64,000 nt of DNA from positions 2,649,877-2,713,876 of the forward strand of contig NMRA01000002.1 in assembly GCA_002633005.1 (NCBI GenBank), written 5' to 3'. The notes below the pieces were generated by a model. The model saw only the letters and a program-made list of their open reading frames with translations, did no database searches and was not told the origin of the DNA. The number at the start of each line of letters is the position of its first letter. The stretch's first letter is position 1. The translations under genes were made by a program, and so were the position numbers. The DNA is from Phoronis australis. Taxonomy: Eukaryota > Animalia > Phoronida. Below are positions 868 through 60,990 of this stretch, one piece after another.

Positions 868-1158
868 TTATGGTTCATCGTGAAGGAAGTTTTCAAGGCT
901 GTCAGTCTCCTTTAAGAAAACGGACAGACATTTCCATTTGTTGCCATGCATTATATGTTGTAGGCATGTAACAGTGCCATCCAGTAGGTGGCTCCTTAGC
1001 CTATAAAAAGCTGGGCAAGACTCTACCAGGTGTTTAGGGGATTCTACGTCAGTACCACACTCGGGACGCACTGGGCTCTCCATATGCCCAGTAATGTGTC
1101 TGCGTCGGGCTAGGTTACAGTGGCCCGTCAAAATTTTAATGACGTGTCTTATGCCCAA
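868..1158 (-). pseudogene. 3' fragment of a non-LTR retrotransposon ORF2 (C-terminal CCHC-type region)
   Basis: ORF contains LTGHCNL...H...ECG...ES.KHL..SCPA, the typical C-terminal signature of I/R1/Loa-group LINE ORF2; no RT domain is visible. Confidence 0.7.
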
Positions 1159-2772
1159 TCTATCAGGCTCAGAAGGTATTTTGAATCTTTTGGTTTGATC
1201 ACTTTGGGAAAATTCCCCTTGGTCTCTTTGTAGAAGTTAAGTCATGCCCACCGGGCTGCTGACATTGCAAACACGAAAGTTAATTCTGCGTCTGCTTAGA
1301 TATCACGAATGTCATCCCCTAACGCACCTTCTCGTTTTTCTGACTTAGAAGCATCACCACACGAGCAGCTGATTTGGTTCTGTCACTGATAACGTAACTG
1401 TCACGTGTCATTAAGTCTTTCATCAGTTTTTCGGCTAGTAGGTCCTCTATCGTGTGCTTTAACAGAAATTAACAATACCTTTAAAAAAACAATAAAATGC
1501 AGTCAATTTCATTTTTGCGTCTATCGGTGAATTAAAAACAGATATTGACATCATTTTGGCGTGGAGACCTGAGTGACGAAAGTTTTTTTTTTGGTGGGCT
1601 TGTTGTTCTTTCAACTTGTGTTCTAGGTTGTAATAAAGAATTTGATCCCATAAGCGTTGAATAAGTTGAGTGCAATACAGCCATGCGATGTTGCTATCCC
1701 GATTGCACTACCAGGACTACTTTAACAGGGCAAAAGGTAGGTCAATGACGACTCGACGTTGTCAGTCAGCCGGCTCGGTCATCAAACTTTCCCAACACAG
1801 CTTAAAAGTAATAGAGTTGCAGCAGTATGAATAACACTCATAGCATCTGGTACAAAACTGTTAATCACACAACACTTCTGTCTGTTTTATTTGCTATACA
1901 CTCTATATTATATCGCTTGCAACCCACATGACTCAGGCACCGATTCCTCAGTAACCGCAGTGTTAATTATTGGTGCTATTAAATACTTTCAGAAAATGTT
2001 ACGAACTTCAATCAAGCCCTGGAATACCAACTCTAGGACTTGACCTATGTATTCCATTGTTAGAGCTTGCGATCCCGAGATTAGAGTTTGCACTGTGAGT
2101 TTCTGGCTGTCTGCCTCGACTGGGTTTGATCGAGTGTTTTAGTTGCCAAATCAAGGTAAATCTCATTGTTTTCTTTTCATTTTGTCATTGTTGTTCATCA
2201 AGAAAAGCTCTTGGAGTTTGGTTCCGGACAACCAGCGATTTCTCGACAAAATTTGCCAACACAATCAGCAATTACACTGGTCTTTCTTTACACGCACCGA
2301 CGTGTAGGCCTGGGTAGAGACACGGAATAGTCTGTCCTTCGACATCTTTTCAGCTCCAGTCGACATCTAATTTCGACAGCCTGTCAAACTACATACCGGG
2401 AGTTTTTCAACAAGACATTTTTTGGTGTTAAGTTCACGCAACAGTAGTTTATGGAAAGAAAAAACATTTTGTTTCTGAGTGTTTGTTCTGCAATTATAAG
2501 TGAAACATTTTGGCCCTACTAACAGGTGTGTTTACGTAACTTTCGAAAACTTTGCTCGGAATTGCGTACCCAAGCGTGTGTGGGCGTGTGTGTGGGAGGA
2601 ATATATACCTTTGAATATTTGCCTGTATAAAAATAATAATTGCAGGCGGTCTGGTAAACGTTGTACCAGACGTGCGCAGGCCACGCATGTGGGCCCATTG
2701 CACTGATCACCTGGAACCATTTTTATGCTTTAATAATATTTAGTTAAAACTGAGCTGAGGAGCTAGAGACTG

Positions 2773-10270: not shown

Positions 10271-10937
10271 CTGACAATTTTGTTCTCAAGACAAAAATCC
10301 ATTTTAATCTGAGAAAGGAGCAAGTACGTGGCCTAAATGGCCTAGATGGCCTAGATTTTTTTCACATTAGATGGCCCTTATATCGACCCTTTAAAAGAAT
10401 GTTTAGGCTTCAAAACCACTGGGCTTCTTATCAGACTTTGCGGAAAATGTTATAGTTGAAATTACAGCAATGAAGTTTTGGGCTACGCAAGCGTAACTTA
10501 TAACTGATTCCAGTAGTTTTGCGTTCTCGCAAAATGTTGGGTTAATTCCTTGCCTTTGAATTATTGATCGAGGCCTGTGCTCAAATTTAAGGTAAACGTT
10601 CCCAGTCCTTGAATTTTTGTCAGTTTACAATCTTCGAGATGAGCAGACATGCTTCTTTTCCAAGTGATAGTCAAAAGAGTAAGGATTAAAGGCGAAAGCA
10701 ACCTTTTTTCTTGTCATTTTTAGTAAAAAATAATGTTCGTTGATAATCTCAGACATATTTTTCAGTTAATTACAGCTTTTCGTAATTTAATTAATTACTC
10801 GGTCCCTACTCCGAAAGTGACGTTTTAGGGAGTCAACAATTTCGAGTTATTTGTTTTCGTATAGTGTGAGCTGTAGAATCATACCTCCATTGTGGTAAGT
10901 TCGGTCGTCGTATGCTTTTGTTTACGAGTCAGTCAAC

Positions 10938-11195
10938 ATGCCGCACAGTTGCTGCTTACCGAGATGTACTCGTTATCGTCTCACGCGCACTCTAGGAATT
11001 CCATTACATCGCTTTCCGAAAGATGACACACTTCGCCCTACTCGGCTCGTTCGCGACGTACAAAGCAGTGGAGAGTTGCCGAGTAGTCTAGAGTGTGTGG
11101 CAAGCATTTTCTACCCTCGGATTACGAAAAAGATATGTACGCTGATTTGAAGAAGGTCCTAGCAAAACAACGCCTGAAGAAGGGTGCAGTGCCCC
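10938..11195 (+). pseudogene. Frameshifted THAP zinc-finger (C2CH) domain
   Basis: MPHSCCLPRC...LHRFPKD, then in a shifted frame VCGKHF...LKKGAVP (THAP C-terminal AVP motif). Confidence 0.75.
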
Positions 11196-12917: not shown

Positions 12918-14352
12918 TCAGGTGTCTCAAAAAGGTGAGTCACTTTTTCACAAGTTTTCATATTTCTTACAGATAAACCTTAGGATTTTATCAATAAATG
13001 TGCAAAATATCGAAGAGAACTGTCCAATTGCGCCAGTATTGTATAAATTTTAATTTTACGATACAAAAAACATCAGGTCAAAAAAATAAAATATCAAGGG
13101 GAAGCTCGCTTATTTCAGTCTACGTTCAATGTGGCCTCCATCTTCCTCCACGACAAAACGGAGCCGTTTCTTCCAACCAGAAATGCTCTTTCATATTTCT
13201 TCCATCGAAATTATATCCCATGACATAATTATCTTGTCTTTTAACTCATGCTCAGTCAATTTCTCGCTCATTCCCCAGTAAACTTTCTCCTTCAGAGAGT
13301 CCCAAATGGATTGCAGTAAGGACTGAGCGGAGGTGACTCATTCCTTTAGATGAATTTTGCTCCTCCATATATGAGCCTGGGTTATCTTGCTCGTGTGTGA
13401 AGCAGCCTCGTCTTGCTGAAACATATAATTGCTTCCAGGATAGTCATCCAATAGCTGCATGTAGCGTTGACTGTAAATTTGGCTCTATCAGTGTCAATAA
13501 AATGAATATTTGTTTTTCCTTCTTACAATACTCCAGCGGAAACCATTACTTTTTTGAAAAATCTGGAAGTCTCATGATAGAGTCGAGGAGACTGAATTTC
13601 TCGTTTTTTTTTCCCATAAACACAATTGTTTTGGCGATTTTTAGCGATTTCTAGCCTAAAGTCTTTTTCATCAGTGAAAAATTTCATCAGTGAAAATGAT
13701 TCTTTTCGCATAAATGGCTGAGTAGGGGTCATGCTGGTATTGGCATCGATTTTTTTCTTTCCTTCTAACATTTCGATCTTTCTGTGATACCTACATTCTT
13801 TTGAAGGGGCTTTAGCTCCAGTTTTTGTCATTCTTTGCACAGAAGACTTGCGCACTTGTAAAGCGCCTGCGACTTCTCTCGGAGATTTGTGATTCCCCGG
13901 GTTGTTTTGATGGGATTGAATCTGTTCCTCAACACGATCCTCGTTTTCTTTCGAACACGCGGTCTTGTGTCTCACACTTTTACGTGCAACAGACCCTGTG
14001 TTGCGTATTTTAGCAATAAGCCTATTTATAGCGGCACGACTCCACCGTTTTCCAGGGAACGTCCATGCGATTCTTCTTCCGCCTCACCGTTTCTTCTTGA
14101 AACAGTTTCCAATAGTAAATTCATCACTTAATCTTAAAAGCGTCCATACCAACCGGAATATTGGACAGAACTGAATTGGATACAGATCTGACAATAAAAA
14201 GCAAATATCATAGTACTTCCATAATTTTTAAAATTACTTTAGACAAGTTGATGACTCCCTGAAGATTCGTTGTGAAAATGTTGAACGAATTCGGTTGGCA
14301 AATTGCTAAGAAATTAGCTGTCAAAAAGTGGCTCACTTTTTGGAACACCTGA
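12918..14352 (-). mobile_element. Degenerate Tc1/mariner (maT/DD37D-like) transposon
   Basis: TIRs TCAGGTGTCTCAAAAAGGTGAGTCACTTTTT / AAAAAGTGGCTCACTTTTTGGAACACCTGA flanked by TA; minus-strand ORF 13523-13975 has an HTH-like segment (SPREVAGALQVRKSSVQRM) plus FFTDEKDF, NRQN and VMVSAG; frameshifted. Confidence 0.85.
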
Positions 14353-21759: not shown

Positions 21760-22183
21760 ATGTTGCGCTCCGTAGCAACAGGCCTTGCTAGAAGCTATGT
21801 TAAGTCGCTCCCCCTTTCAAGCAACCAAGTAAATTTTCTCAGGAAATGTCTGCCGTCCGTTGGCAGTTTCCACCAATATTGTTCGGCAGCAGAAACTCAT
21901 GACGAAGGTGGAGACGGCGACGATCCAAACTTTTATTTAATGGTGGAGAAGTTCTTCGATAGAGCCGCAGAACTCGTCGAAGATAAACTTATCGAAGATG
22001 TTAAAGTTCGGAACATGAGCACTGAAGAAAAACGAAAGAAAGTTCGAGGTATCCTACAAATCATCAAACCGTGTAATCACGTCCTGGCGTTGTCTTTCCC
22101 ACTCAAGCGTGACAATGGTGAATACGAAATGATTGAGGGGTACAGGGCTCAACACAGCCAGCACAGAACTCCTTGTAAAGGCG
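21760..22183 (+). CDS. GLUD1: Glutamate dehydrogenase, mitochondrial, exon 1 (transit peptide + N-terminus)
   Basis: Arg/Ser-rich presequence, then [16 protein letters not shown]...[16 protein letters not shown]; donor G|GTATGT; 424 nt, phase 1. Confidence 0.96.
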
Positions 22184-25370: not shown

Positions 25371-25571
25371 GAATCCGTTACAGCCTCGACGTCAACATCG
25401 ATGAGGTGAAGGCCCTGGCCTCACTCATGACATACAAATGTGCCGTGGTGGATGTGCCGTTTGGGGGTGCCAAGGCAGGACTCTGCATCGACCCCCACAG
25501 GTACTCGGAGAACGAAATGGAGAAGATCACTAGGAGGTTTGCAGTGGAGCTGGCCAAGAAAGGCTTCATTG
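25371..25571 (+). CDS. GLUD1: Glutamate dehydrogenase exon 2
   Basis: tttcag|GA ATC CGT...; GIRYSLDV...[17 protein letters not shown]...LAKKGFI; catalytic Lys motif; donor G|GTAAGT. Confidence 0.97.
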
Positions 25572-26673: not shown

Positions 26674-29089
26674 AAAGTGACAAGATGCTGTCATTGAAAG
26701 GTCGTTCACGACTTTACAGCTGGTTTTAACGGCGAGTCGTCAAGCGTCAACGCAGCGCGACAGTAGGAACGCCCATGTGCATCAAAATTATTGGCAGGGT
26801 CCGTGCTGTGCCAATGGTGAAGGTTATATTGCGTCATCCTGTGGTTGCTGATAGTGTCACCTAGCAATAACTCCATATCTGTTAACTCAGGAAGCTAGTA
26901 GGAAAGGTCCAGTTAGCTTCAAAGTGCACATATATACTGATGCTTCATAAGTAGCACTGGTAGGCTAGTACCCAGTACCACATTTAACCTGATGGGAAAA
27001 GGTTATTAGAGTTCAGATGCTTGTACTGCAGACAGAGATTTACAACATCTGTGGTACAATGCTCTGTTATCAGTGCATCCATTGTCTGGGTCATACCTAC
27101 AATGAGGGTTATCTGATGGCATTCAACTGAATACTGCTAGGCAGTAGGATAGGTCTTGACTTTCAAAAGTAAGGACAATTACAATAGCTGCTGCCCATGT
27201 GAGGCTGAGATGTTCAGTACTTTAACACATTTAGACTTCAAGTGTTCAACCTTATACAAAATGTTTCAAAAAGGGGTGTCAATCTTACTTTTCAGGTTGA
27301 ATAGATATTGATGAGAATCATACAAATTATGTGTTCGCTGGTGGAAGCATCCAGGAATGTCTGCCGGACGCTCACTGTCCGGCAAGGAACGTAAACCAAG
27401 GTTAGCCGCCACATGCGGCCAGTCTGTTCTCAGTGACAGCATCATTACGCATTTTATCAGTATTGTATGCTCAAGTAATTTATCCCTTGTCCTCACCTAA
27501 TGATCAAAATCTCATGTTCTGTTGCATGCGTTTTTCTCTGGCTGAAGAGCGACCAAATTTAGCCGCCACACCCAGCCAGGCTTAGGGTAAAGAGTTGTAG
27601 AGTAAAGAGACATGGCTAATGTGATTCTAATACACTTGGGGGCCAATATCATACAGCATGACCCGTTTTTGTTTTTATTATATGCAAAGTGAAAGCAATA
27701 GTGGAGAAAAGTGGGGGGTTAACCAGTTGCACAACCTGACGGTATAATTTCTATAAACAGCACTTGGGATGGTCAGCATTGAGTACTTGTTGGAAATACT
27801 GGACCGTGTGAATGTGGGTTGAGAGAACTGAAAGGACAGCCTTTTTGAAGGCATATTATTAAAAAGGAGCCCAGCAGCGCTTTCATGATGAAGGTTGAAT
27901 CAACCACCTCTCAAGGCTCTCATTTAGGGGAATGCTTAAATTCAGCGCATTCAGCTCAGCCATTTCAGGGACATTGTGGCTCATGGTTTCAACATATGTT
28001 GTAGATGACATTTTTACCATAGTTTGTGAACCATTTTGATTAGTTAGATTAACTCCCCTGTTTTGCAGTTGATGCTGGTGAGCTCTTTGTTACATTTATG
28101 ATTTGTTGATCCTGCTATATACTGGTGAACATTGTTAAACACAATTACACATCCCTGGTCATCTCTCAGTTTTATCAAATTACTAAACGATTCATATGAT
28201 TGAAGATTACGCAATGAAGTTGCAATGCTCACAATACACTGAGCATTGTCACCCAAGTTACCATGGTTGGTGAAGTTCATTAGCATCGTATTTTTATGGA
28301 CAGCAGAGCACGTGCTAGCAATCAAATAGTACTGTTCATTATAGCCACACATTGAGGTTAACGCAATTTGCGTTTGACATACACTTATAAGTTCTGCGTG
28401 TGATATTTAAAGTTACAATATTATTAACACTTGATTACCAGTACTGTTTCTTCCCTACCCATAAGGATATTTGGGATACTAGAAAAGTTTGGCTAACTTG
28501 GGAACATCATATTTCAGAAATGACTGATCGTTTCGTTATGACACTAATATGCTACATGTACCTACGATTTATAACCTGAATCTGAATCCATAAAATTGTA
28601 AACAAAAAACAACGTGATGTTCCTTCAACCAATTTTGTGTACAAGAGATGCTATTGCCTAAAACCCTTTAATATGACACTATTAATAAGGATTGCATTCA
28701 AGTGAGTACTCAGTAGCTAAATACACGCACTTATCTATTAAGTCCTGCATATTAAGCTGATTTTGTGCATTGTGTATGAAGTTGGATTGCAGAACTGTTG
28801 GTCATAAAATTACCACAAAGTTGTGATCTTGCAGGACCCCTGCTCACCTGAGGTGCGACATCCCGTGTCATCACCCCTTATCAGTAGTGTCTCGAGTATT
28901 CAAAGTAATTTTTTTCAGAACTGATTCTAACCTTGCAGAATATTTAGTTATTTGGAGAGAATTTTTGGACATTATGATGGGAGTCTGGCATGATTTTCAA
29001 ATATTCTAGGGGAATGGAGCCATTAATTATCCCTTGAATCCAGGCTCCGAGGGCCCTGTCTTGTGACACCTGTGCTTGTGTCAGTATAG

Positions 29090-29275
<186 letters not shown>

Positions 29276-30055
29276 TGAAATATAATGGAGAAGCTAACCA
29301 ATCCCTGCAAATGCTTTTTAGTTCCAGAGATGCAGGTTGCTAAGAGACCCACAGAACTTCTAGAGCTACCCTGGTAACACAGTCAGTAGAAATGTCAGCT
29401 AATCTCCCTTATTGATTCCATATGGCCAATTGGGTTTATATCGATGTCATTTGAGTAGAGTATCCTGAGCTCAGGGGGGCTTGAAGGTTGTCTATTATTT
29501 ACAGCAGATTAATATCGCTGATTTTGTCATGTTATTAGGTTGATGTTGGACAGGAATTGATTCTAGCAATCAAGTATACTCTCTTGATTTCGAAAATTGT
29601 GTCAGACTGAGTGTTATGCTGCACTCCATTCATTTCACACTGTTTAGCCTGTCAATGTTGAGCATTCCTATTGAAGCACGTTGGGGGGTATAAATATTAC
29701 CACACTCACCCCATCTTGAATTGGTGCTGGTCAAATGAGAGTAACTCGAAGCCAATACGGACATGCACCATTTCAGAATCCACTGTTTTAGGGTTGGCCA
29801 GCCCTTATAAAATATATAGTGTATTCCAAAGTCGATGTTCTTGTTGGTAATGGGAATAGAATCCTAGCTTGGAATATTATGAGAACGAATTTAGAGTAAA
29901 AATTCCAGTTACATTTTTAGCCTGTTTAATAGGGCGAAATGCAGATTTAAAAAGTAATGTATCATTTAGTTGAATTTTTTTATTGTATGCGTGTTATCTG
30001 CATTACTTGATCCTTGCCTATCCTGTTGTTGTTTCATGGGGTATGGTTACTTGTT

Positions 30056-31412
30056 ATGTAGGATCCTAGAAAATGTGCAAATTTGGCAAACCTCGGAAAT
30101 CACTATGCTTTACGGCACTGTTCTCCAAAACTGCGTTAGGAATGGTTTTTAAAATATCCCACTTTTGCCCGAGGGACTATCTAAAAACAAAACTTTTTTG
30201 CCCTTCTCATGAATAAGCTCGCATGTTTCATAAAACAAACAAAATCATAATTTAGAAAATTTTATTAGTGTTTTTTAAGTTTCATCTTGAGCATTATATC
30301 ATATTAAATTTGGGCATGTTATTGACTGATTTTGTTGTTTTGCTGTCAATGTACCTTTATTTTTTTGAATGTTACTAAAAACGCGGTCCAATTAATAACA
30401 AATTGTAAAAAGTCAAAGATGGGATGTTTTCAATTAAAGTCAAAAGTTGTATAACGATATTAACCAAATAACTTAAAAACGGCCGCTTTTTTTGAATTTC
30501 ACCGTGAACATTTTTGTCTAACAATCTGACCATACCATTGTTTTGCCGTCGTTGTTTCTTTGTTTTTGCACGATTTTACCAAAAGGACATGACTATGCCA
30601 CTAGATCAATGGTAAAAAGACAAAAATGAAATTCTACAGGCTTTCACCTTTCACAAGGAATATAGTATACTTTTTTTCTGTTAAATTTCGTAGTTTTTCT
30701 AGATATTTCAGTGAATGCACAGACTTGTGGGTAAGACCCTTCAACCTTATGTGTCTGATATGATCATGCGTTGATTTGACTGCATAATGTTATTTATTGC
30801 TTTGGGCCAAATGTACTCTCAATTGATATTTCACTCCTGAACTTTCATTGACCTTTCAAGAATATGTGGTTGGTAAGTTACCTGTAACGATGTGGCCCTA
30901 TGATGAGTCTATGTGCATTCTAGCAAATGGCTACAAAATTATGGATTTTAATTTGGTAAATGCGTTTTCTGACAGTAGATAGACTGTAAAATTTCAGTTT
31001 TGACCTTGTATCAAGCTGCCATTAATTGGGTGAAGTGATTTGCCTTTTTTGTAAAAACGCAAAAAGAAACTAAGGTACATCCATATCAATTTCACGGTAT
31101 GAACAACATGATCATATTTTGTTTGATGCAAATATTCAAGGTGAAACCTCGTTATGTACAACTTTATGAATTATTTCATTTTTAGGTTATGCAGTTTTTC
31201 AGTTTTCACAGTCCTTTTTATGGATAGCAACTCATGCAAAAGTGGGTCATTTTAAAAACTTAAAAACTAACTGCTCCTAACGTTCAGTATTTCTGAAAAC
31301 AGAGCAGTATAAGGCATGGTATCTGAATGTTTCATAACATTCTAACCAATTCATGCAGCGATATGATATTTCATTATGGGATCCAGTTTCGGATATTTTG
31401 TAGGGTCCTACA
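30056..31412. mobile_element. AT-rich non-autonomous DNA element with degenerate inverted ends
   Basis: GTAGGATCCTAGAAAAT / ATTTTGTAGGGTCCTAC plus inverted subterminal blocks; related fragments near 38250-38545 and 49920-50290. Confidence 0.4.
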
Positions 31413-33011
31413 AAACCTTTGTTGTTCCTATTCCAAAGTTTGTGAATGTACTAACTCCAGTCTCATTTTTTTCTGAACTTGATCAATTTGCTCATTTTGG
31501 AGCACCTGTTTTGTACGTAGCTGCAAATAATTTGATATGAGGTGTTTACCACTGGTACACAAGCAACTCAAAAATCTTTTGAAAAATATAAAAGGCCTTT
31601 CCCACTGACTTCAAAGCGTTGGTGTTAGTGAAGTTTTGTTCAATGGGAACACTTAACTTTGGTCTTGGATTGAAGTTAACAGTGCGAGTTTACTCTTGAA
31701 TAAAGAAAGGGAGGATTTAATGGTGCAGCATCGTTGCTTCACTACAATGGGAACGCTTGTCACCAAAGTTATCGGCAGGGGTAACTGCATTTGCCAAGAG
31801 CAGGTGGTCACTGGTTAATATTTGTTAATATTTAGTTCTAGTTTGTTATTTCGGAAGTATAAGCATTCTGTTTCACTTTATCCATGTGTTTATTGGATTC
31901 TTGATATTACGAAAGAAAATGTTTGAACGCATATGCAAAACTTGTACCTGTCATAAGCCATACCACCTTTGTTTAGATCAGCTGATACTCAGCCACCTAG
32001 TGATAATTCCTCTGACTTGGTTGTCTGAACTGTAACACTTACTGGTAACTTCCAAGTTTGTGGTTAACCACTGTTAACATCAATGCTTTGATAGTAGCAG
32101 AGTTAACTGTGTGGGAAAGTGCCTTGAAAGTGAGTTGTAAATATCCAGTGGTTTGTTTCGTGAAAACTGAATTTTGGTCTAGTAATCCTCACAACTATTT
32201 GTGAAAAATAATTAAATCTCACTCGAGCAAATGTACAGTCTCTGAGACTATATAAGCATATCTGCTACGTAGTTGCTGAGATACCTTCTGTAAATAATTT
32301 CTATACTGTGACTCGCTCAGCATTGCTTGGCTAAAACTTAGAAGTGAGAGACACTGTAAAGGGCAGTTGGCATTACGCAGTTGGGGCAGTGGACTAACAT
32401 TCTTAATCGACCACAGGAAGCTTAGATTCAATGCGAAAGGTGATTTTAAACAGTCTATATTCAGTACGATACTAAGTTAGTACTCTAAAATAGAACGGAC
32501 TAGCAAGCGTACGAAAGTTGGTCCAAAAGGTTTGGTTCGGAGTATTTTGTTTGTCGACCATCCTGAATTATCTCCCCAATTCACGTAAGTGTGGTGTTCT
32601 TTCCGCCATTTTGTGCATCCTCGACATTGTTGCTGTTTGTGTCTACTCACTGTTCAGTGTACAAGACAAACTTCAAGTTAAACACACCTCAAAGTAGTAG
32701 AAGTGGTGAACGGTTGTCGTATCTGTATTGCAGTACGGCATAGTGACATCTGATGTTTAGTAAGATGAAGCTTTAAACTTTGGACGATGGAATGTTAGTC
32801 CGGTCAGGTTAGGAAGGTGACAATTATTTGATATGGTGTGTTTTTCATGCTGATTTGTTCCGACTGCGAACTAGTCTAAACTAACTCTAATGCGAAAGCA
32901 GCTTTAGACCAAATTTCTGTCTTCAGTCTTCGTGAAACAAAACTCCAGTAATGTACCTTTAAAACAGTTCTTCCGCACTTGCATTCTCTTCATGAAGTTT
33001 TACCATTGTAG

Positions 33012-33100
33012 GCAGCAACGAGTTGCATGCTTTTGCTTGTGTTACCGGTAAGCCCATTACGCAAGGTGGTATTCACGGGCGCATTTCAGCCACCGGAAGG
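33012..33100 (+). CDS. GLUD1: Glutamate dehydrogenase alternative exon 4a
   Basis: ttgtag|GC AGC...; (G)[29 protein letters not shown]; donor AGG|GTAGGT; 89 nt. Confidence 0.9.
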
Positions 33101-34016
33101 GTAGGTATCCAGCGTTCCCTGTCGTGTAGTGTCCCAACTAACACACTCTTGGCTTTGAAGTGCCTAACACACACGTTCATTCCCAAAATGGTAGCCATGT
33201 CTGTTGGTATTATGTAGAATTTTAAATTTTGGTTTACAGCCCATTCTTAAAGAATCGTCCACCCCTTACTTTTGAAAGTGTCTGATTAAGCACTCACGGC
33301 TCGGTTAAGGGCCTGCCCTCTGCTTTTGATAATGTGAACAGTTATGCGCCCACTGCTCTAGCTAGTGCATACAAGTGATTTACTTGCTGAATTGGCTTTC
33401 AAAACTGTAAGGACTTTCTTGACCGTCATATTGCAGGGCAGTCCTTGAATTTTGTCAAGTATTTTCAACTTGTATTTCTCCTTTCTCAAGTTCATGAATT
33501 TCACGTTTCGGTTAGAGAGGGCCAATTCAACTTCCAGTGTCGGTAACTTGCCCTGTGGCAAATTCTTAAAACTTTAAGTCAATGGAGTTTGATTTCAAAG
33601 GTCGTAAGTTGCTAGGGCAACCGGCTGGCTCAGGTCAAACGACCTTGTTTGGGTACTAGTATGCAGTCACAGTTTCTTGAAATTTATGATATAAGTGCCT
33701 ATCTCGTGTTAGAGTCCACTCTCCTGATTTTCCGGCTTTTCAATTTAAGCGTCACGCTACCCATGGGTGTTAACCCAAATGCTTATTAGGGTTAAACATT
33801 TTTCAAGTAATGAAAACAGACATGAGCAACCATTTTGGTAGTGTTGGAATTTGATTCCGTTGTCTTTCTTTCACTGTGTCTGTTTCTTTTGTTCTCCCAT
33901 TCTGTCATTTCAGTCCATCCCTTTCAGGTGGCAGCACTGTAACACGTGACTTGGTTGGGTGCCGTAACTGTAGCTAACCGTGTCTGTCACTTAGAAGTAA
34001 CCTTATGTTTTTGCAG

Positions 34017-34105
34017 GAGTAAACGATATCCACGCACACGCGTGTATTACTGGTAAGCCCATTACCCAGGGCGGCATTCACGGCCGTATCTCTGCCACTG
34101 GAAGG
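34017..34105 (+). CDS. GLUD1: Glutamate dehydrogenase alternative exon 4b
   Basis: ttgcag|GA GTA...; (G)[29 protein letters not shown]; donor AGG|GTATGT; 89 nt. Confidence 0.92.
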
Positions 34106-35626
34106 GTATGTAGCCTGCCTGTGATCAGTTGCCCTGACTTGTCACTGCAACGCTGCTACAGCTGGTCCCCGGTCTTGGGGTCGGACCAAGATGGGGGGCT
34201 GTGTGTTTTTCTTGTTTGCTCTGGGCTTGTAGATGATGTCAAATCTTGTTTTCTTTGGCTATCATCGGGAGGTGATCGTTGTTGTGTGAATTGCACCTTA
34301 TGATGTCCTGCCATTGCTGGCTTGCACACAGCTACAATCCGGGGATCATTTTGCCAAAGTTCATACGCTTGGTTTTAGCTAAGGTGGTTGTAACATAGAT
34401 ATTTACTGGACATTGTGGTGCTTAATTTATTAATATGATTTCTGAAGCATGATGAATGTTTCGCTAAAAATTTTTTTAAAATTTTGTGTTTGTTATAAAG
34501 TAAAAGTGCCTGTGACCATCTTGGCTTCAACCAGATGTATAACCTTCCGTAAGACGGGTCTCACTCCCAGCCTGATGTTCACTGAAAGTTCACGCCTCGC
34601 AAATTGTTCCAGGCAAACAATTTTTACAGCATCTGCACCAATGTCTTTTGTGGATAGCATGAGCTCTTATATACACTAAGGGTTGTGGGATATCGGTTTT
34701 CCAAAGCAGCACTGTTAACAGAGTGACGTCATTTTAGTAGTTTTAGAGCAGCCTGGTGTTCAGGTCACAAGTAAGCACAGATATCATCTATCCGACATGA
34801 ACTGCCTTGCCGGGCCAATGATCACTTACCTGACATTTCTTTGAAATCGTCAGGATTGGATGACTTGTATCCCTCAATTCTACGCTCTCGGATGCATACC
34901 CATAAGTTTTCGCTATCTGTAAAAATGTCGATAGCAAACCAGAGTTATCTTGGTATCATGATGAACTTGCGAGTGGTGAACAACAGTTTCTGCAGCCTAG
35001 GTCCAATTCACCCTGCCATTTCCTGCCAATTAATTTTAGTTTCCCCTATTACAAAATGCAATGTGGCATATCTGGTTTGGAAAAACTTTTTACCACATCA
35101 GAAGGGACTATATTTAATGCTAACAAATTCTCTGATTTGAGGAGTCCTTTTTTTGATTCATGATTATTTAATGCTGGGACAAATTAAATTGTATTTTGTT
35201 ACTTACGTACTACAGTACTACAAAATCCACCAAAAAGTTTGACGTCGTTCTTATTTTAGCCCAGATATTGTATGGCATTAAGTGATCTGATGCAGTCATT
35301 TTATAAAATACTTGCTTCGTGACAGTTCCATTATTAGTTTACGTGCTGTCAATGTTGTCATGTTTCACCCAGGGGTCGGGGTTGGGGTTGGTATCGGTAT
35401 CGATCTCTCTGTACTCAAAATCAGACTTGAAATTATTGTTGGCTTTTTCTCTTTTACCTTTGTGTGATAAGTGGCTACAGAACTGTGCTCGAGCGCACTG
35501 TGGTTTACGCGTATGCGGATTGCTGATTATATAATTATCCAAATCTCGTGTGAAAAAGGCGAAATGCCGCTCATGGGATGGATGGGAAAATTGTTGGTTG
35601 AAAACAGTAATTGCACAGATATGGGG

Positions 35627-35698
35627 TCCTCAGTAGCTCAGTGGTAAGAGCACTTGACTGTCAATCTAGAGACCTGTGGTTTGGTACCAAGTTGGGGT
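35627..35698 (+). pseudogene. tRNA-Asp(GTC)-like pseudogene or SINE head
   Basis: A-box TAGCTCAGTGG; anticodon arm CTTGA-CTGTCAA-TCTAG; degenerate T-arm GGTTTGGTACC. Confidence 0.5.
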
Positions 35699-35954
35699 TC
35701 CTGATTTTTCTGTGCTTATTTGATATGGGAACACTTCTGTCAGTGAATTTTTGTATGGTAAGTCATATGTACGCAATGAAATACAACTTTTTCCAAGCAC
35801 TCTTTTAGTTAAGCCCTCTGCTGCATGAAAGTATTTTCTGATTACACAGCAGTTCAAGTCTTCTTAGTTCTGTATGAATGTTTATTCGCTATTTTTGCAA
35901 ATAAATTGTTCTCTTTGTTGTTTGTGAATTTCCATGGTCAGTGTTGTTAAGTTT

Positions 35955-36870
35955 TGTCCACACTACGAGTTACCCTAGAGAAACTGGCCCCAGAGCAACT
36001 TACTTTAGAGCAACTAGCCCCGGGGCAAGTTGCCATTATTCAGCCGGCTGTTCACGCTACACAACCTAGACCTGGCGACAAATATGGTGCAAAGGTGATT
36101 AGACTTAGACATTCATATAGCTGTAACAGAGCGAGCGCGGAGTTGGTAATTGCTTCCGCCTTATCTGCAGGGTTGCCTCCATACTAGGAGTTGCTCTGGG
36201 CATGTTGCCCTGTAGCAAGTCTCGTCCCCAAGCCTGAAGATGGCGCTGATCAGTTTAACCGTTTGAGGCTTGGTTTTGAGAAATAGCTTCTGTGCAATGA
36301 TTGGCCGCTGCCTTGATGTTATTAAAACAAAGGCAAATTTAATTATTTTTACAGGCGTTGTTGCTGCCATTCATGAAACAGAAGGCATTGTTTTTGTGAT
36401 TGTTTGAAATAAAAGTTGTTGTTGTACTTATTTTCAATTCTTTTTTATTAATAGTACCATAGATATTAATCTGTTTTCGAAACTAAATACATCATTTTTG
36501 CAATAATTTGGACCTATATTGCTGCAATATACCGTTAGTTTTCATCTTTATATTATACTGCAGAAAATTTCAAAGTTGATATAACTTTATATTACACGTC
36601 ATATTCCAGCGATTTCTGTAAAAATGTGTCAGAATTGTGACACATTTCATTTTCCATAACCATGCCTCAAATTGCTAAACCGTTCATTGCCAACTTGAAG
36701 CTTGGGGACTAGGCTGCCCTATTACAAGTTACCCTACCTCTATTATGTGAGGCAAGTTTTCTCGATCACGCCAAGTTGCCCCAATGTACTATTATTACAC
36801 AACCTAGTGACAATTCATTCCAGGAGTAACTTGACTTGTTCTAGGTTAACTCTTAGTGCGGACGGCACTT
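35955..36870. mobile_element. MITE or non-autonomous element (GTCCACACT / AGTGCGGAC termini)
   Basis: Inverted ends GTCCACACTACGAGTTACCCTAGA / TCTAGGTTAACTCTTAGTGCGGAC. Confidence 0.5.
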
Positions 36871-37093
36871 AGCACCATCTTGTTGTTGACGCCTGCACTA
36901 AATGTGTGCTTCTGTTTCTGCTGCATGATTCCTAGTTTCACTAAAAGTCTTGAGAGTTAACGATTTTTGTTTGATTTCAATTTGTAGATGCTAGGTTAAG
37001 GCTAGTTGTAATTTGCGCAATTGAAATTTCCTGAGAAATTCACGTGTTCCTTCATCAACCTGCAGTTCTCATTCCACATTCTTTCTGCTACAG

Positions 37094-37192
37094 GGTATTT
37101 TCCACGGAATTCAGAACTTTGTGAACGAGGCTAGTTTCATGAGCATGGTTGGCTTGACACCATCTCTAGGTGACAAGACCTTTATTATTCAG
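37094..37192 (+). CDS. GLUD1: Glutamate dehydrogenase exon 5
   Basis: ctacag|GGT...; [33 protein letters not shown]; donor CAG|GTGAGT. Confidence 0.96.
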
Positions 37193-37672
37193 GTGAGTTT
37201 ACAGATGAACACTAGCGGGTGCTACCGAGAGGTTCCTGCTTTGTTGTCCCAGTACAGGAAGCTGTCCTTATCCGTGAGTCTGTATATTTAGCCAAATATC
37301 TGCTAAACTACTGATTTTAACCCTGTAAAAGTGTGTTCAAAGCTAGTAGAATTTGACTTTTTACTTAATACTATTCTGTCATGAACATCATCATGTCTAT
37401 TTAGTAAAATTGGCCAAAAAAGCGTAATCATAGCAAAACAACGTTATCAATGATATGGCCATATTTCATTTGCTATAAATTCTCGAGATAAAATTTGTTA
37501 GTGTTTTCTATAATACCATTTAGTTTTCATTTTACGCAACTTTTCAAGAAAAACACAAAGGCCCTATTTCTTGATAGCCTCTCATACGAAAGTGGATCAT
37601 TTTACAAACAACTCCTTTCTGTGTTTAGGAGAACATCTATCGAATAATTGCTCCAATGTTTTCTCTCCCCAG

Positions 37673-37810
37673 GGCTTTGGTAATGTCGGTCTCCACACAA
37701 TGCGTTATCTGCACAGAGTGGGGGCTCGCTGCATAGGGGTGGCCGAGCTGGATGTCAGTCTATACAACCCCGACGGCATCAGTCCCCGAGAGCTAGAAGA
37801 CTATAAATTA
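37673..37810 (+). CDS. GLUD1: Glutamate dehydrogenase exon 6
   Basis: [15 protein letters not shown] (Rossmann motif and GTP-site residues)...LEDYKL; donor GTAAGT. Confidence 0.97.
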
Positions 37811-38740
37811 GTAAGTCGTCATTCCCCGTACAGTTAAATATTGGCCGCGTAAAAGGAACTTTGGGAATCAGATGTATTTAACTCTGTTATTTCAAAATTA
37901 AGAAAATGTTTTTCAATCTTGTGACTCTTCATTCTAGAATTTTAGTCAAGTGTACTCCAATAGTGGACTTGGTGTTCACTCAACTTACCTGTGTTTGCCA
38001 TTATGCAATAATTATAAAGTATTGTGATTATGCATCATCTGTAATTAAGGTTACTTAGTACTTAATGACAAGACAGTGTACTTACAATAACCAAATATCT
38101 TCAAAATTATAGACTTTAACTTCGTAAAAGTTTATAGTTTCTGAAAGTAGAAGGCCTGCAAATTTTGATTTTTGACTTTTTATTAATCTGCCATCCATTA
38201 GTTCATGTGACCTTGTCTTTTTAGCGAAATGTAGCAAAAGGCAAGATCAATTCACCGCATTTCAATGGTGTCAATAAGATGACCAAATTTTATTTGTAAT
38301 GAATATTCAAGAAAAAATCTCAAAATTGTTTCTAAAGTATGATAAAATTCTTTTTTTTCATGCATTTCTGTTTTTTTTTTTAGAAAATCACAACATTCCC
38401 ATTTTTGATAGCTTTTTTGTGAAAAAAAAACAATTTCTAGCAGCATTATGGAGAATATTGCATAAAGTGCAGTATCTGAAAGTTTCATATAAATCTGATG
38501 AGCCATTTTTAAAAGGTGATGTTCCAAGGTTGGCCAAATTTGCACATTATTCTGGACTCTTGCGTGGGTTCTATTTCATATTTCATTGTCTGTTGGTGTA
38601 GGAGTAGATTGTGCTGATTGTGAACCCAGTGCATTTCCCTTGAAGTACATAGTTGAACATTCAGTTGCTTGACTGAATCATTTAGACCGTGTTGTCTACT
38701 ATGTGGTGCTGTGACCTAGAACCTGTGTTCCTCTCCACAG

Positions 38741-38878
38741 GAGCACGGCACTGTCAAGGGGTTCCCCGGGGCTCAGGAATATGAGGGCAACCTGCTGTTT
38801 GAAGAGTGTGACATCCTGGTACCCGCTGCCAGTGAGAAACAGTTGACTGGAGAGAACTGTCACCTTGTAAAGGCCAAG
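38741..38878 (+). CDS. GLUD1: Glutamate dehydrogenase exon 7
   Basis: ccacag|EHGTVKGFPGA...ECDILVPAASEKQLT...VKAK|gtatag. Confidence 0.96.
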
Positions 38879-39380: not shown

Positions 39381-39461
39381 ATCATAGCTGAGGGGGCCAA
39401 TGGACCAACAACTAACGCTGCTGACAAGTACTTTGTGGAGAACAAAGTTCTCGTCATTCCT
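39381..39461 (+). CDS. GLUD1: Glutamate dehydrogenase exon 8
   Basis: ttacag|IIAEGANGPTTNAADKYFVENKVLVIP|gtaagt. Confidence 0.96.
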
Positions 39462-39978: not shown

Positions 39979-40194
39979 GACCTGTATGTGAACGCGGGTG
40001 GTGTTACTGTCTCATACTTTGAGTGGCTAAAGAACCTCAACCATGTTAGTTACGGCCGCCTGACGTTCAAGTATGAAAAGGAGTCCAATTATTACCTGCT
40101 GGATTCTGTACAAAAATCACTGGAGAGGAAATTTGGCCGAAACGGTGGCCAGATTCCCATTACACCATCTCAGGACTTTGAAAAGAGAATTCAT
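39979..40194 (+). CDS. GLUD1: Glutamate dehydrogenase exon 9 (antenna)
   Basis: [33 protein letters not shown]...FEKRIH|gtgagt. Confidence 0.97.
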
Positions 40195-41388: not shown

Positions 41389-41451
41389 GGTGCATCTGAG
41401 AAGGATATTGTCCATTCTGGCCTGGAGTACACGATGGAACGATCTGCGCAC
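41389..41451 (+). CDS. GLUD1: Glutamate dehydrogenase exon 10 (pivot helix)
   Basis: ttacag|GASEKDIVHSGLEYTMERSAH|gtaagt. Confidence 0.97.
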
Positions 41452-42900: not shown

Positions 42901-43020
42901 AACATTATGAGGACAGCCATGAACTATAACCTCGGTCTTGACCTAAGAACTGCTGCATACATCTCATCTATTGAGAAGATCTTCAGAGTGTATAATGAGG
43001 CTGGCTTGACGTTCACATAA
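42901..43020 (+). CDS. GLUD1: Glutamate dehydrogenase exon 11 (last)
   Basis: ttgcag|[20 protein letters not shown]...YNEAGLTFT*; total CDS with one exon 4 is 1656 nt (551 aa). Confidence 0.97.
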
Positions 43021-59681: not shown

Positions 59682-60990
59682 TAGACACTGACTACTTCTG
59701 GCCGGAAGCTTTTCAGCAAATTATTCCTCACATTAATTAAAAGATCAAAGGCACATTGTTATAAGTACCTTTTGTGCATAGAGGGACACCTTAGGAGGCT
59801 GTCGATGTATTTTAATGCCTTCTTGGCTATTTCAACACTTTAACACTGCACTTGCTCCTGGCAGTCGCAGTAAAAACAGGAGCGTGTGCAGTGTAAAAAT
59901 GACCAATTGCCCACTGAACGAAGAATAGATCGAAGAAGAAAATTGATTATGGGAGTATTTTTCGAGTTGGAAGGAATTAAAGGCATTGACTTCCTTCAAA
60001 GGTATCCCTCTATGTGCAAAAGGTACTTATGGCTTGCCACCCAGACAAGTTTAGTGCCCCTCACCCTGATCAAAAAACGCCAAATCCAGCCCACCTCCTA
60101 TGTACTTCACAATCACACGCTAAAGTCGGTCAAGGAAGCTAAATATTTGGGCGTTCTCGCATGACCTCAAATGGTCATCCCTCATAAGCAACATCCAGAA
60201 GAAAGAAGTAAAACTCTGGGCTTTCGTAGGTGAAACGTATAAGCAGCCAACGATATAAGGAGTTTGCGTATGAAACAATGATTCGACCCTCCTTGGAATA
60301 CGCCTCTACTGTTTGGGAGCCTTATACCCAAAAAGACATTGAATCTGTAGAGAAAGTACAGAGGAGAGCGGCTCACTGGGTCACGAGATGGTTCAATCGT
60401 CTATCCTCTGTTGGTTCAATGTTAGAAACCTTAAACTGGCCCACCCTCAGCCACAGATACAAATATGATACGAAGTCAGTGATCATCAACTCTGATGTTG
60501 CCCCTATTGCAGATCTTACTATCTCTGGCATCTGTACCAGAAGGTCGTCCAATTATAGTATTCCAATAAAAAGGACAGGTGACAGGAAAAAGACATTCTT
60601 TCCTAGAACAGTCGCGGACTGGAATAGCTTGCCGGGCTGCGTTACATCCGTCCCTTTTCTTGATATCTTTGTCAGCAAGCTATCTGCCTTTCTGAAGTAA
60701 CTGACTGCCTTATCTGTTAACGATCTAGCTATATCAACCGACCTCTGAAGTGACGTCCACTATGTATATGTATCCTTTTAAACCCGTTATAGTTCTCGTT
60801 TTTGTTGATCCTCATTGTTATACAGTGACATAATACTCTGGAGAGAGTGTGGTCACTTAAACCAAGAAGAAGAGGAGAATATGACTGATGTTGTAATCAG
60901 TGTGAGGCATAATTCACCAAAAAGCTCTCATCATATGAGGCCCCTTCACCTTCTCTACTGGGGCCAGCTAGAGACTGTGGTCACTGTCTA
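59682..60990. mobile_element. Foldback element, copy 3, interrupted by a LINE; 9-bp target-site duplication
   Basis: TAGAC...GTCTA flanked by CTTCTGGAG / CTTCTAGAG; the right arm resumes after the LINE tail. Confidence 0.75.
60033..60876 (+). mobile_element. 5'-truncated LINE (CR1/L2-group) RT C-terminal fragment
   Basis: KYLGV; YETMIRPSLEYASTVWEPY; EKVQRRAA; FFPRTVADWNSLP; (GAA)n-like tail; stops and frameshifts upstream. Confidence 0.85.

Follow-up and report, generated by a model that had tools for sequence, protein, structure and literature searches.

The alternative use of PKM exons 9 and 10 gives PKM1 and PKM2, for which both the allosteric difference and the tissue switch have been measured. 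The exon pair described here, in the glutamate dehydrogenase (GDH) gene of Phoronis australis, resembles it in that two homologous exons of equal, frame-shifting length are used one at a time in a regulatory region of a central metabolic enzyme, whereas for GDH we infer the allosteric difference that was measured in PKM. Antenna-insert splice forms of GDH are reportedly made in Drosophila and Bombyx, and shrimp are said to possess two GDH cDNAs; to our knowledge, none of these forms involves the present exon. The GDH pair is of the same kind as the PKM pair and as the tandem-duplicated exon substitutions, a class described in the available parts of PMC9741552 and PMC8373072, and it is already in the databases only as automatic isoforms.

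Human GLUD1 and GLUD2 also provide one animal with two differently regulated forms of GDH, but these arose through gene retroduplication and not through splicing, their key changes being at residues 443 and 456; the human GDH splice forms known to date either are truncated or begin with an alternative first exon (accessible parts of PMC5192433 and PMC11050691). In its available part, the GDH review PMC5192433 deals only with truncating mammalian splice forms and makes no mention of invertebrates. Vertebrate GLUD1 has a different exon border, with an intron before Asp191 (short frames and the same part of PMC5192433), and no such exon pair occurs among the vertebrate GLUD1 matches listed. No paper on mutually exclusive GDH exons was found among the titles and abstract openings of the open-access literature; supplementary exon catalogues (PMC9741552, PMC8373072, and the lancelet splicing atlases) may list such pairs. 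The original prediction knew of no such description for GDH, and it did not include that the same exon exists as automatic NCBI isoform pairs in other lineages, which makes the case more general and less unique. In Branchiostoma (XP_035668595.1/XP_035668599.1) and Mytilus (XP_071128713.1/XP_071128714.1), as in Phoronis, the differences are confined to residues 189-212 and always include residue 195. Unlike the Phoronis pair, these are predicted proteins with other residue pairs at 195, and Branchiostoma also swaps the neighboring and last exons.

Gene structure and encoded enzyme

The window, i.e., the whole stretch of 64,000 nt that was analyzed, contains a GDH gene on the plus strand at 21760-43020. 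It specifies an 11-exon transcript in which exons A and B fill the same slot (Table 1). With either exon a complete GDH frame of 551 amino acid residues results, whereas with both exons together or with neither the frame closes early, 818 or 694 nt ahead of the final joint, in keeping with the frame shift that had been predicted. Exon 1 presumably encodes a mitochondrial targeting peptide.

The product is an animal-type allosteric GDH of the GLUD1 family, with ELFV domains, the catalytic Lys126, the antenna, and the residues of the GTP, ADP, and leucine sites. It is identical to a mammalian GLUD1 (P0385) at 375-377 of 496 mature positions, and the best identities to database proteins are approximately 73-74% over the full length. 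Outside residues 189-204, every catalytic, GTP-site, ADP-site, and leucine-site residue that was compared is that of the mammalian reference or the bovine enzyme; the residue lists are drawn in part from PMC7536180 and PMC9570180. A quick-method tree of 63 rows, from which a Timema row was excluded because of an internal repeat, places the protein among the lophotrochozoans and outside the mollusc clade.

Table 1. Positions of the GDH exons and intronic elements in the window, and of the triple exon copies in two metagenome contigs.
Feature	Position	Strand	Content or evidence
GDH coding exon 1	21760..22183	+	start codon, start of dimerisation domain; Pfam PF02812
Exon 2	25371..25571	+	carries catalytic Lys126; reads that enter exon 3 have their loose end at the end of exon 2
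Exon 3, common upstream exon	29118..29204	+	carries leucine-site Asp181; frame and RNA joints
Alternative exon A, 89 nt	33012..33100	+	S189 E191 L192 F195 V198; joints to exons 3 and 5
Intronic element X, behind exon A	33158..33213	+	predicted to pair with Y or Z
Intronic element Y, inside A-B intron	33802..33843	+	predicted partner of X
Alternative exon B, 89 nt	34017..34105	+	V189 D191 I192 H195 I198; joints to exons 3 and 5
Intronic element Z, behind exon B	34255..34297	+	predicted competing partner of X
Exon 5, common downstream exon	37094..37192	+	frame and RNA joints
Exon 6	37673..37810	+	exon 5 to exon 6 joint: 48, 47, 61 reads in three runs
Exon 7	38741..38878	+	open frame; reads that leave exon 6 have their loose end at the start of exon 7
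Exon 8	39381..39461	+	open frame, AG/GT
Exon 9 (antenna)	39979..40194	+	frame, site alignment, Pfam
Exon 10 (pivot helix)	41389..41451	+	frame, site alignment
Exon 11, last coding exon with stop	42901..43020	+	frame, site alignment
Triple exon copies	L016:2182-3124; L017:640-1613		tandem

Either-or splicing of exons A and B

Three stranded RNA-seq runs (X2, X3, and X4) from one study, all with the same species label and represented by approximately 18-19% of their reads, were mapped onto the region 29000-37900, together with a contig set (X1); three reads were the threshold for listing a joint. Exon 3 is joined to exon A by 23, 14, and 26 reads in the three runs (total 63) and to exon B by 43, 35, and 34 reads (112); the joints leading to exon 5 number 32, 24, and 28 reads from A (84) and 45, 32, and 24 from B (101). 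All four joints named in the original prediction are therefore present. The joint from A to B is represented by 0, 2, and 0 reads, that is 2 of 86 A-donor reads, and no joint skipping from exon 3 to exon 5 reaches three reads in any of the runs, a rarity that applies to steady-state RNA, where splicing and decay look alike. The same five joints are found in X1, with a depth of 43.8 for A to B versus 126-201 for the productive joints. One GDH gene uses tandem exon A or exon B, one at a time, and the mutually exclusive use that had been proposed is reflected in the scarcity of the A to B joint and the lack of a listed skip joint. Since each copy is joined to the same two neighboring exons, two genes or an assembly artefact can be ruled out.

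The share of exon A is 0.38, 0.36, and 0.48 per sample (pooled 0.41), with no significant difference among the three samples, which carry no tissue labels (p 0.27, 0.35). Regulated double inclusion or skipping, leading to nonsense-mediated decay, might serve to control the amount of enzyme, the protein differences being incidental. An A to B joint does exist, at the read fraction and contig depth given above, and it shifts the frame; both copies are nevertheless productive at similar levels and both are selected at the protein level, and we attach very little weight to this explanation.

Sequence relationship of the two exons

Exon A is preceded by an acceptor AG at 33010-33011 and followed by a donor GT at 33101; the corresponding sites of exon B are AG at 34015-34016 and GT at 34106. 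The two exons are separated by 916 nt and share length and phase. Re-derivation of the coordinates and translations returned the splice sites, phases, and peptides that had been claimed for two 89-nt exons. With the bovine numbering fixed on PDB chains, where the third residue of exon B is Asp191, the exon covers residues 188-217 and the five A/B differences are S/V189, E/D191, L/I192, F/H195, and V/I198, again as proposed. Exon B is the more vertebrate-like of the two copies.

The exons match at 65 of 89 positions, and their codon differences comprise 13 synonymous and five non-synonymous ones (Nei-Gojobori dN 0.14, dS 1.75; Fisher p 1.4e-6). Codons 199-217 contain 10 synonymous and no non-synonymous changes, so the last 19 residues are identical, as was originally noted. 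On these codon comparisons, both exon copies are under purifying selection, and a pseudo-exon is ruled out by dN/dS together with the RNA joints. Three of three variants listed inside exons A and B are synonymous (40 of the 42 variants of the region being shown). The likeness of A and B ends at the splice sites, the 300-nt flanks aligning at shuffle level (35 and 78 of 200 shuffles reach the score), and no second copy of any other of the 12 exons is present within the 64-kb window.

The same exon in other animals

Among proteins, same-length isoforms of Branchiostoma floridae, B. belcheri, and B. lanceolatum differ in this exon, with F/N195 throughout and V/I212 in two of them; in the B. lanceolatum pair residue 195 is the sole difference. 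The isoforms of Mytilus edulis and M. galloprovincialis show five differences in this exon, including S/R195; a mytilid-like isoform pair has S/H195, and one Mytilus gene model (P0269) reads through both copies in tandem. Two copies of the exon lie in a genomic frame (P0129; Y/H195), and the metagenome contigs L016 and L017 carry three AG/GT-bounded copies each, with R/Q/A195. When copies 1-3 are compared between these two contigs, 11 synonymous and one non-synonymous codon differences are found. Only a single form of this exon appears among the listed isoforms of oysters, scallops, gastropods, a chiton, a nemertean, and echinoderms; the isoform survey covered 26 protein clusters of at most 15 members each. 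The teleost isoform pair P0106/P0107 was considered as a further case and rejected, since it differs elsewhere. Of 80 metagenome loci, 12 include the exon with both introns, two of these being multi-copy; among the other ten, L033 alone extends from exon 3 through exon 5 and has a single copy, and most end so early that they may have a second one.

Window copies A and B share His193, which is rare (5 of 113 distinct segments), and both lancelet copies share Ser204. Because these residues are shared within pairs, separate duplications or gene conversion are favored as the likely source of the pairs. The nucleotide identity is saturated, A and B matching at 65 of 89 positions and B matching unrelated single copies at up to 65, and thus gives no verdict on single versus repeated origin.

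Several further observations concern these genes. Copy 2 of L016 and L017 is changed at residues 203-205 and has Leu in place of Arg217, which we take to be a GTP contact, yet it is conserved between both contigs; a relative, L004, has a near-identical pyrimidine- and GC-rich stretch of 45 nt before copy 1. In Branchiostoma (P0246-P0259) one GDH gene has at least four alternative regions (approximately 179-199, 203-228, 236-253, and the precursor's last exon), from which at least eight isoforms of equal length result. Exon 3, which belongs to the active site, is swapped in isoforms of Haliotis, Gigantopelta, and Branchiostoma; the antenna exon in those of Mercenaria and Liolophura; and the last exon, encoding the leucine-site C-terminus, in echinoderms, with the last exon also swapped in Branchiostoma and Lineus. 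Database pairs with other GDH exons swapped are P0315/P0404, P0323/P0415, P0331/P0417, P0333/P0419, P0167/P0168, and P0291/P0292. An intron-free GDH contig (L003:1608-2005) has three last-exon-like segments in a row.

Residue 195 and the regulatory pocket

Regulation of GDH by a second NADH/ADP site is still debated. Borgnia 2016 reportedly assigned the regulatory nicotinamide to a cavity that His195 lines. Regulatory NADH and ADP use a common pocket, and the GTP contacts include His209 and Ser213 (available part of PMC7536180), which agrees with the role assigned to these two residues in the original prediction. In a simulation of bovine GDH with epicatechin gallate, the ligand in the ADP site is surrounded by His195 with His391, Ser204, and Ser393 and by His85 of the neighboring subunit (accessible part of PMC11983793); this one simulation backs the predicted position of His195 near the ADP/NADH pocket. 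The leucine, ADP, and potassium contacts named in parts 1 and 2 (of five) of PMC9570180 include none of the five A/B residues, and residue 195 has no match in the available text of the PMC7536180 supplement.

His occupies position 195 in 107 of 115 mostly vertebrate matches; in some fish GDHs (P0012, P0023, P0040, P0048, and P0075) it is replaced by Tyr. Across 113 distinct segments only one other site of the exon varies more; His stands at 195 in 57 of them, and Y, R, F, S, N, Q, and A are also found there as sole forms. It is the only residue that differs in all five lineages with alternative copies, for which the null probability is 0.04-0.07 (0.087 with four lineages), compared with 0.18-0.32 for some shared site.

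On balance we lean toward the view that the A and B isoforms differ measurably in regulation centered on the ADP/NADH pocket, chiefly through Phe versus His195. The two 551-residue subunits differ at five positions, and both exon copies are used at similar levels. Phe195 would deprive the pocket for ADP or the second, inhibitory NADH of a polar contact, and the swap would thereby retune ADP activation or NADH inhibition while the GTP site is kept; mixed hexamers would give graded regulation. A broader proposal would make invertebrate GDH a splice-tuned enzyme: at least five animal lineages would have duplicated the exon encoding residues 188-217 separately from one another so as to flip residue 195, this residue would set ADP activation and inhibition by the second NADH, and a competing RNA pairing would set the mix in Phoronis. 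We regard this proposal as possible but doubtful.

The differences may instead act mainly at the subunit interface, where residues 189-192, which follow the helix with the leucine-site Asp181, would change how the hexamer packs, its stability, or activation by leucine, and not the binding of nucleotides. Of the five differences, three lie at 189-192, Glu191 of exon A is rare (1 of 113 segments), and residues 186-190 presumably line the hexamer core. Leucine is bound between subunits by Asp181 (bovine D241) according to the accessible part of PMC9570180. Against this, the Branchiostoma pairs differ at 195 (and 212) and not at 189-192, and 195 alone differs in every lineage, which leaves an interface effect quite improbable.

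A stronger competitor of altered pocket regulation, though still an unlikely one, is near-neutral redundancy, whereby an old duplicate has been kept since both spliced copies must stay functional, and the five differences drifted between enzymes that behave alike. Four of the differences (189, 192, 195, and 198) are mostly at variable sites or conservative, the A:B ratio does not change among the three samples, and GDH exons have been duplicated elsewhere too (exon 3, antenna, last exon), as if the gene were tolerant of duplication. Loss of a copy should be easy, however, and yet both are intact to near-saturation of synonymous sites (dS of approximately 1.75). The retention of the F/N195 pair in three Branchiostoma species and the excess of synonymous differences between L016 and L017 likewise speak against redundancy, and retuning of the ADP/NADH pocket is the reading that we prefer.

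Candidate elements for exon choice

In alpha-tropomyosin, the branch point of the second exon lies too near the first donor, with an AG-free stretch up to the acceptor. Steric hindrance of this type is ruled out here, as the 916-nt intron holds 49 AG dinucleotides and the A to B joint occurs. An after-the-fact search in this one species pointed to three intronic elements, X, Y, and Z. X:Y is predicted to form two perfect 10-bp helices (-40.7 kcal/mol, pair probability 0.76-0.88), and its 20 chained pairs are reached by 0 of 300 shuffles but by 7 of 68 other tiles of the window. The predicted X:Z pairing is weaker (-37.9 kcal/mol; 2 of 25 shuffles reach it) and is not dominant in the pair probabilities. 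In a comparison of 209 windows covering 15.8 kb, none pairs with X as well as Y and Z do, and a second partner as good as that of X was found for 1 of 60 random elements. At 33812 a variant replaces a G-U pair of X:Y by A-U, so that the pairing is kept. The first 140 nt of the A-B intron are free of listed variants (P 0.017 for this particular stretch and 0.40 when any stretch is allowed). The region of the exon 3 donor is also predicted to pair with that of the exon 5 acceptor at a level reached by 0 of 15 shuffles, this being one of 15 comparisons. No comparable stems are found in L016 and L017, where 55 of 60 and 60 of 60 shuffles reach the best ones.

We tentatively put forward the competing pairing of X as a candidate RNA switch for exon choice, acting on top of nonsense-mediated decay, and judge its chances to be somewhat short of even. 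X:Z pairing would loop out exon B and favor A, X:Y pairing would leave exon B free, and transcripts with both exons or neither would be removed by nonsense-mediated decay. A similar logic is found in exons 7a/7b of human ATE1, where an element between duplicated exons has two competing partners (R1R3/R3R4); there the pairings cover 3′ splice sites and are proven by compensatory mutation (available part of PMC7797038). Predicted Y, in comparison, lies approximately 175 nt before the acceptor of B, and Z lies behind B, so the likeness is one of logic and not of geometry.

Two other candidates were set aside. The X:Y stem is probably not a pair of small transposon ends, as no second copy was found by blastn in the window, to which this search refers, and the reads across it are almost all from one strand. 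An RBFOX-like motif in exon A (33024) and QKI-like motifs (32880 and 33137) are among 9 and 13 such sites in the gene.

Other features of the window

A tRNA-Asp-like sequence at 35627-35701 (+) lies in the intron behind exon B; it is probably a tRNA-derived repeat, as reads of both strands pile up there. A 107-codon open frame at 56528-56208 (-) resembles an exon of another gene, presumably that of mitochondrial ribosomal protein L1, and has no Pfam match. Open frames at 13526-14083 (-), 10899-11147 (+), 60230-60697 (+), and 871-1236 (-) look like mobile-element remnants, which we take to be of transposase, THAP-domain, and retroelement kinds; the Pfam scan of 13529-14083 and 60230-60697 returned no match.

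Biological significance

GDH links amino-acid and carbon metabolism. With four different exons alternative in different phyla, it clearly exemplifies recurrent exon duplication. A splice choice in which one pocket residue is changed repeatedly offers natural variants for studying the second NADH/ADP site, and suggests that marine invertebrates may adjust glutamate flux by splicing, a role that in apes fell to a second gene. If this is true, residue 195 would be a dial of the least understood regulatory site of GDH, and the isoform pairs would be ready-made mutants of it.
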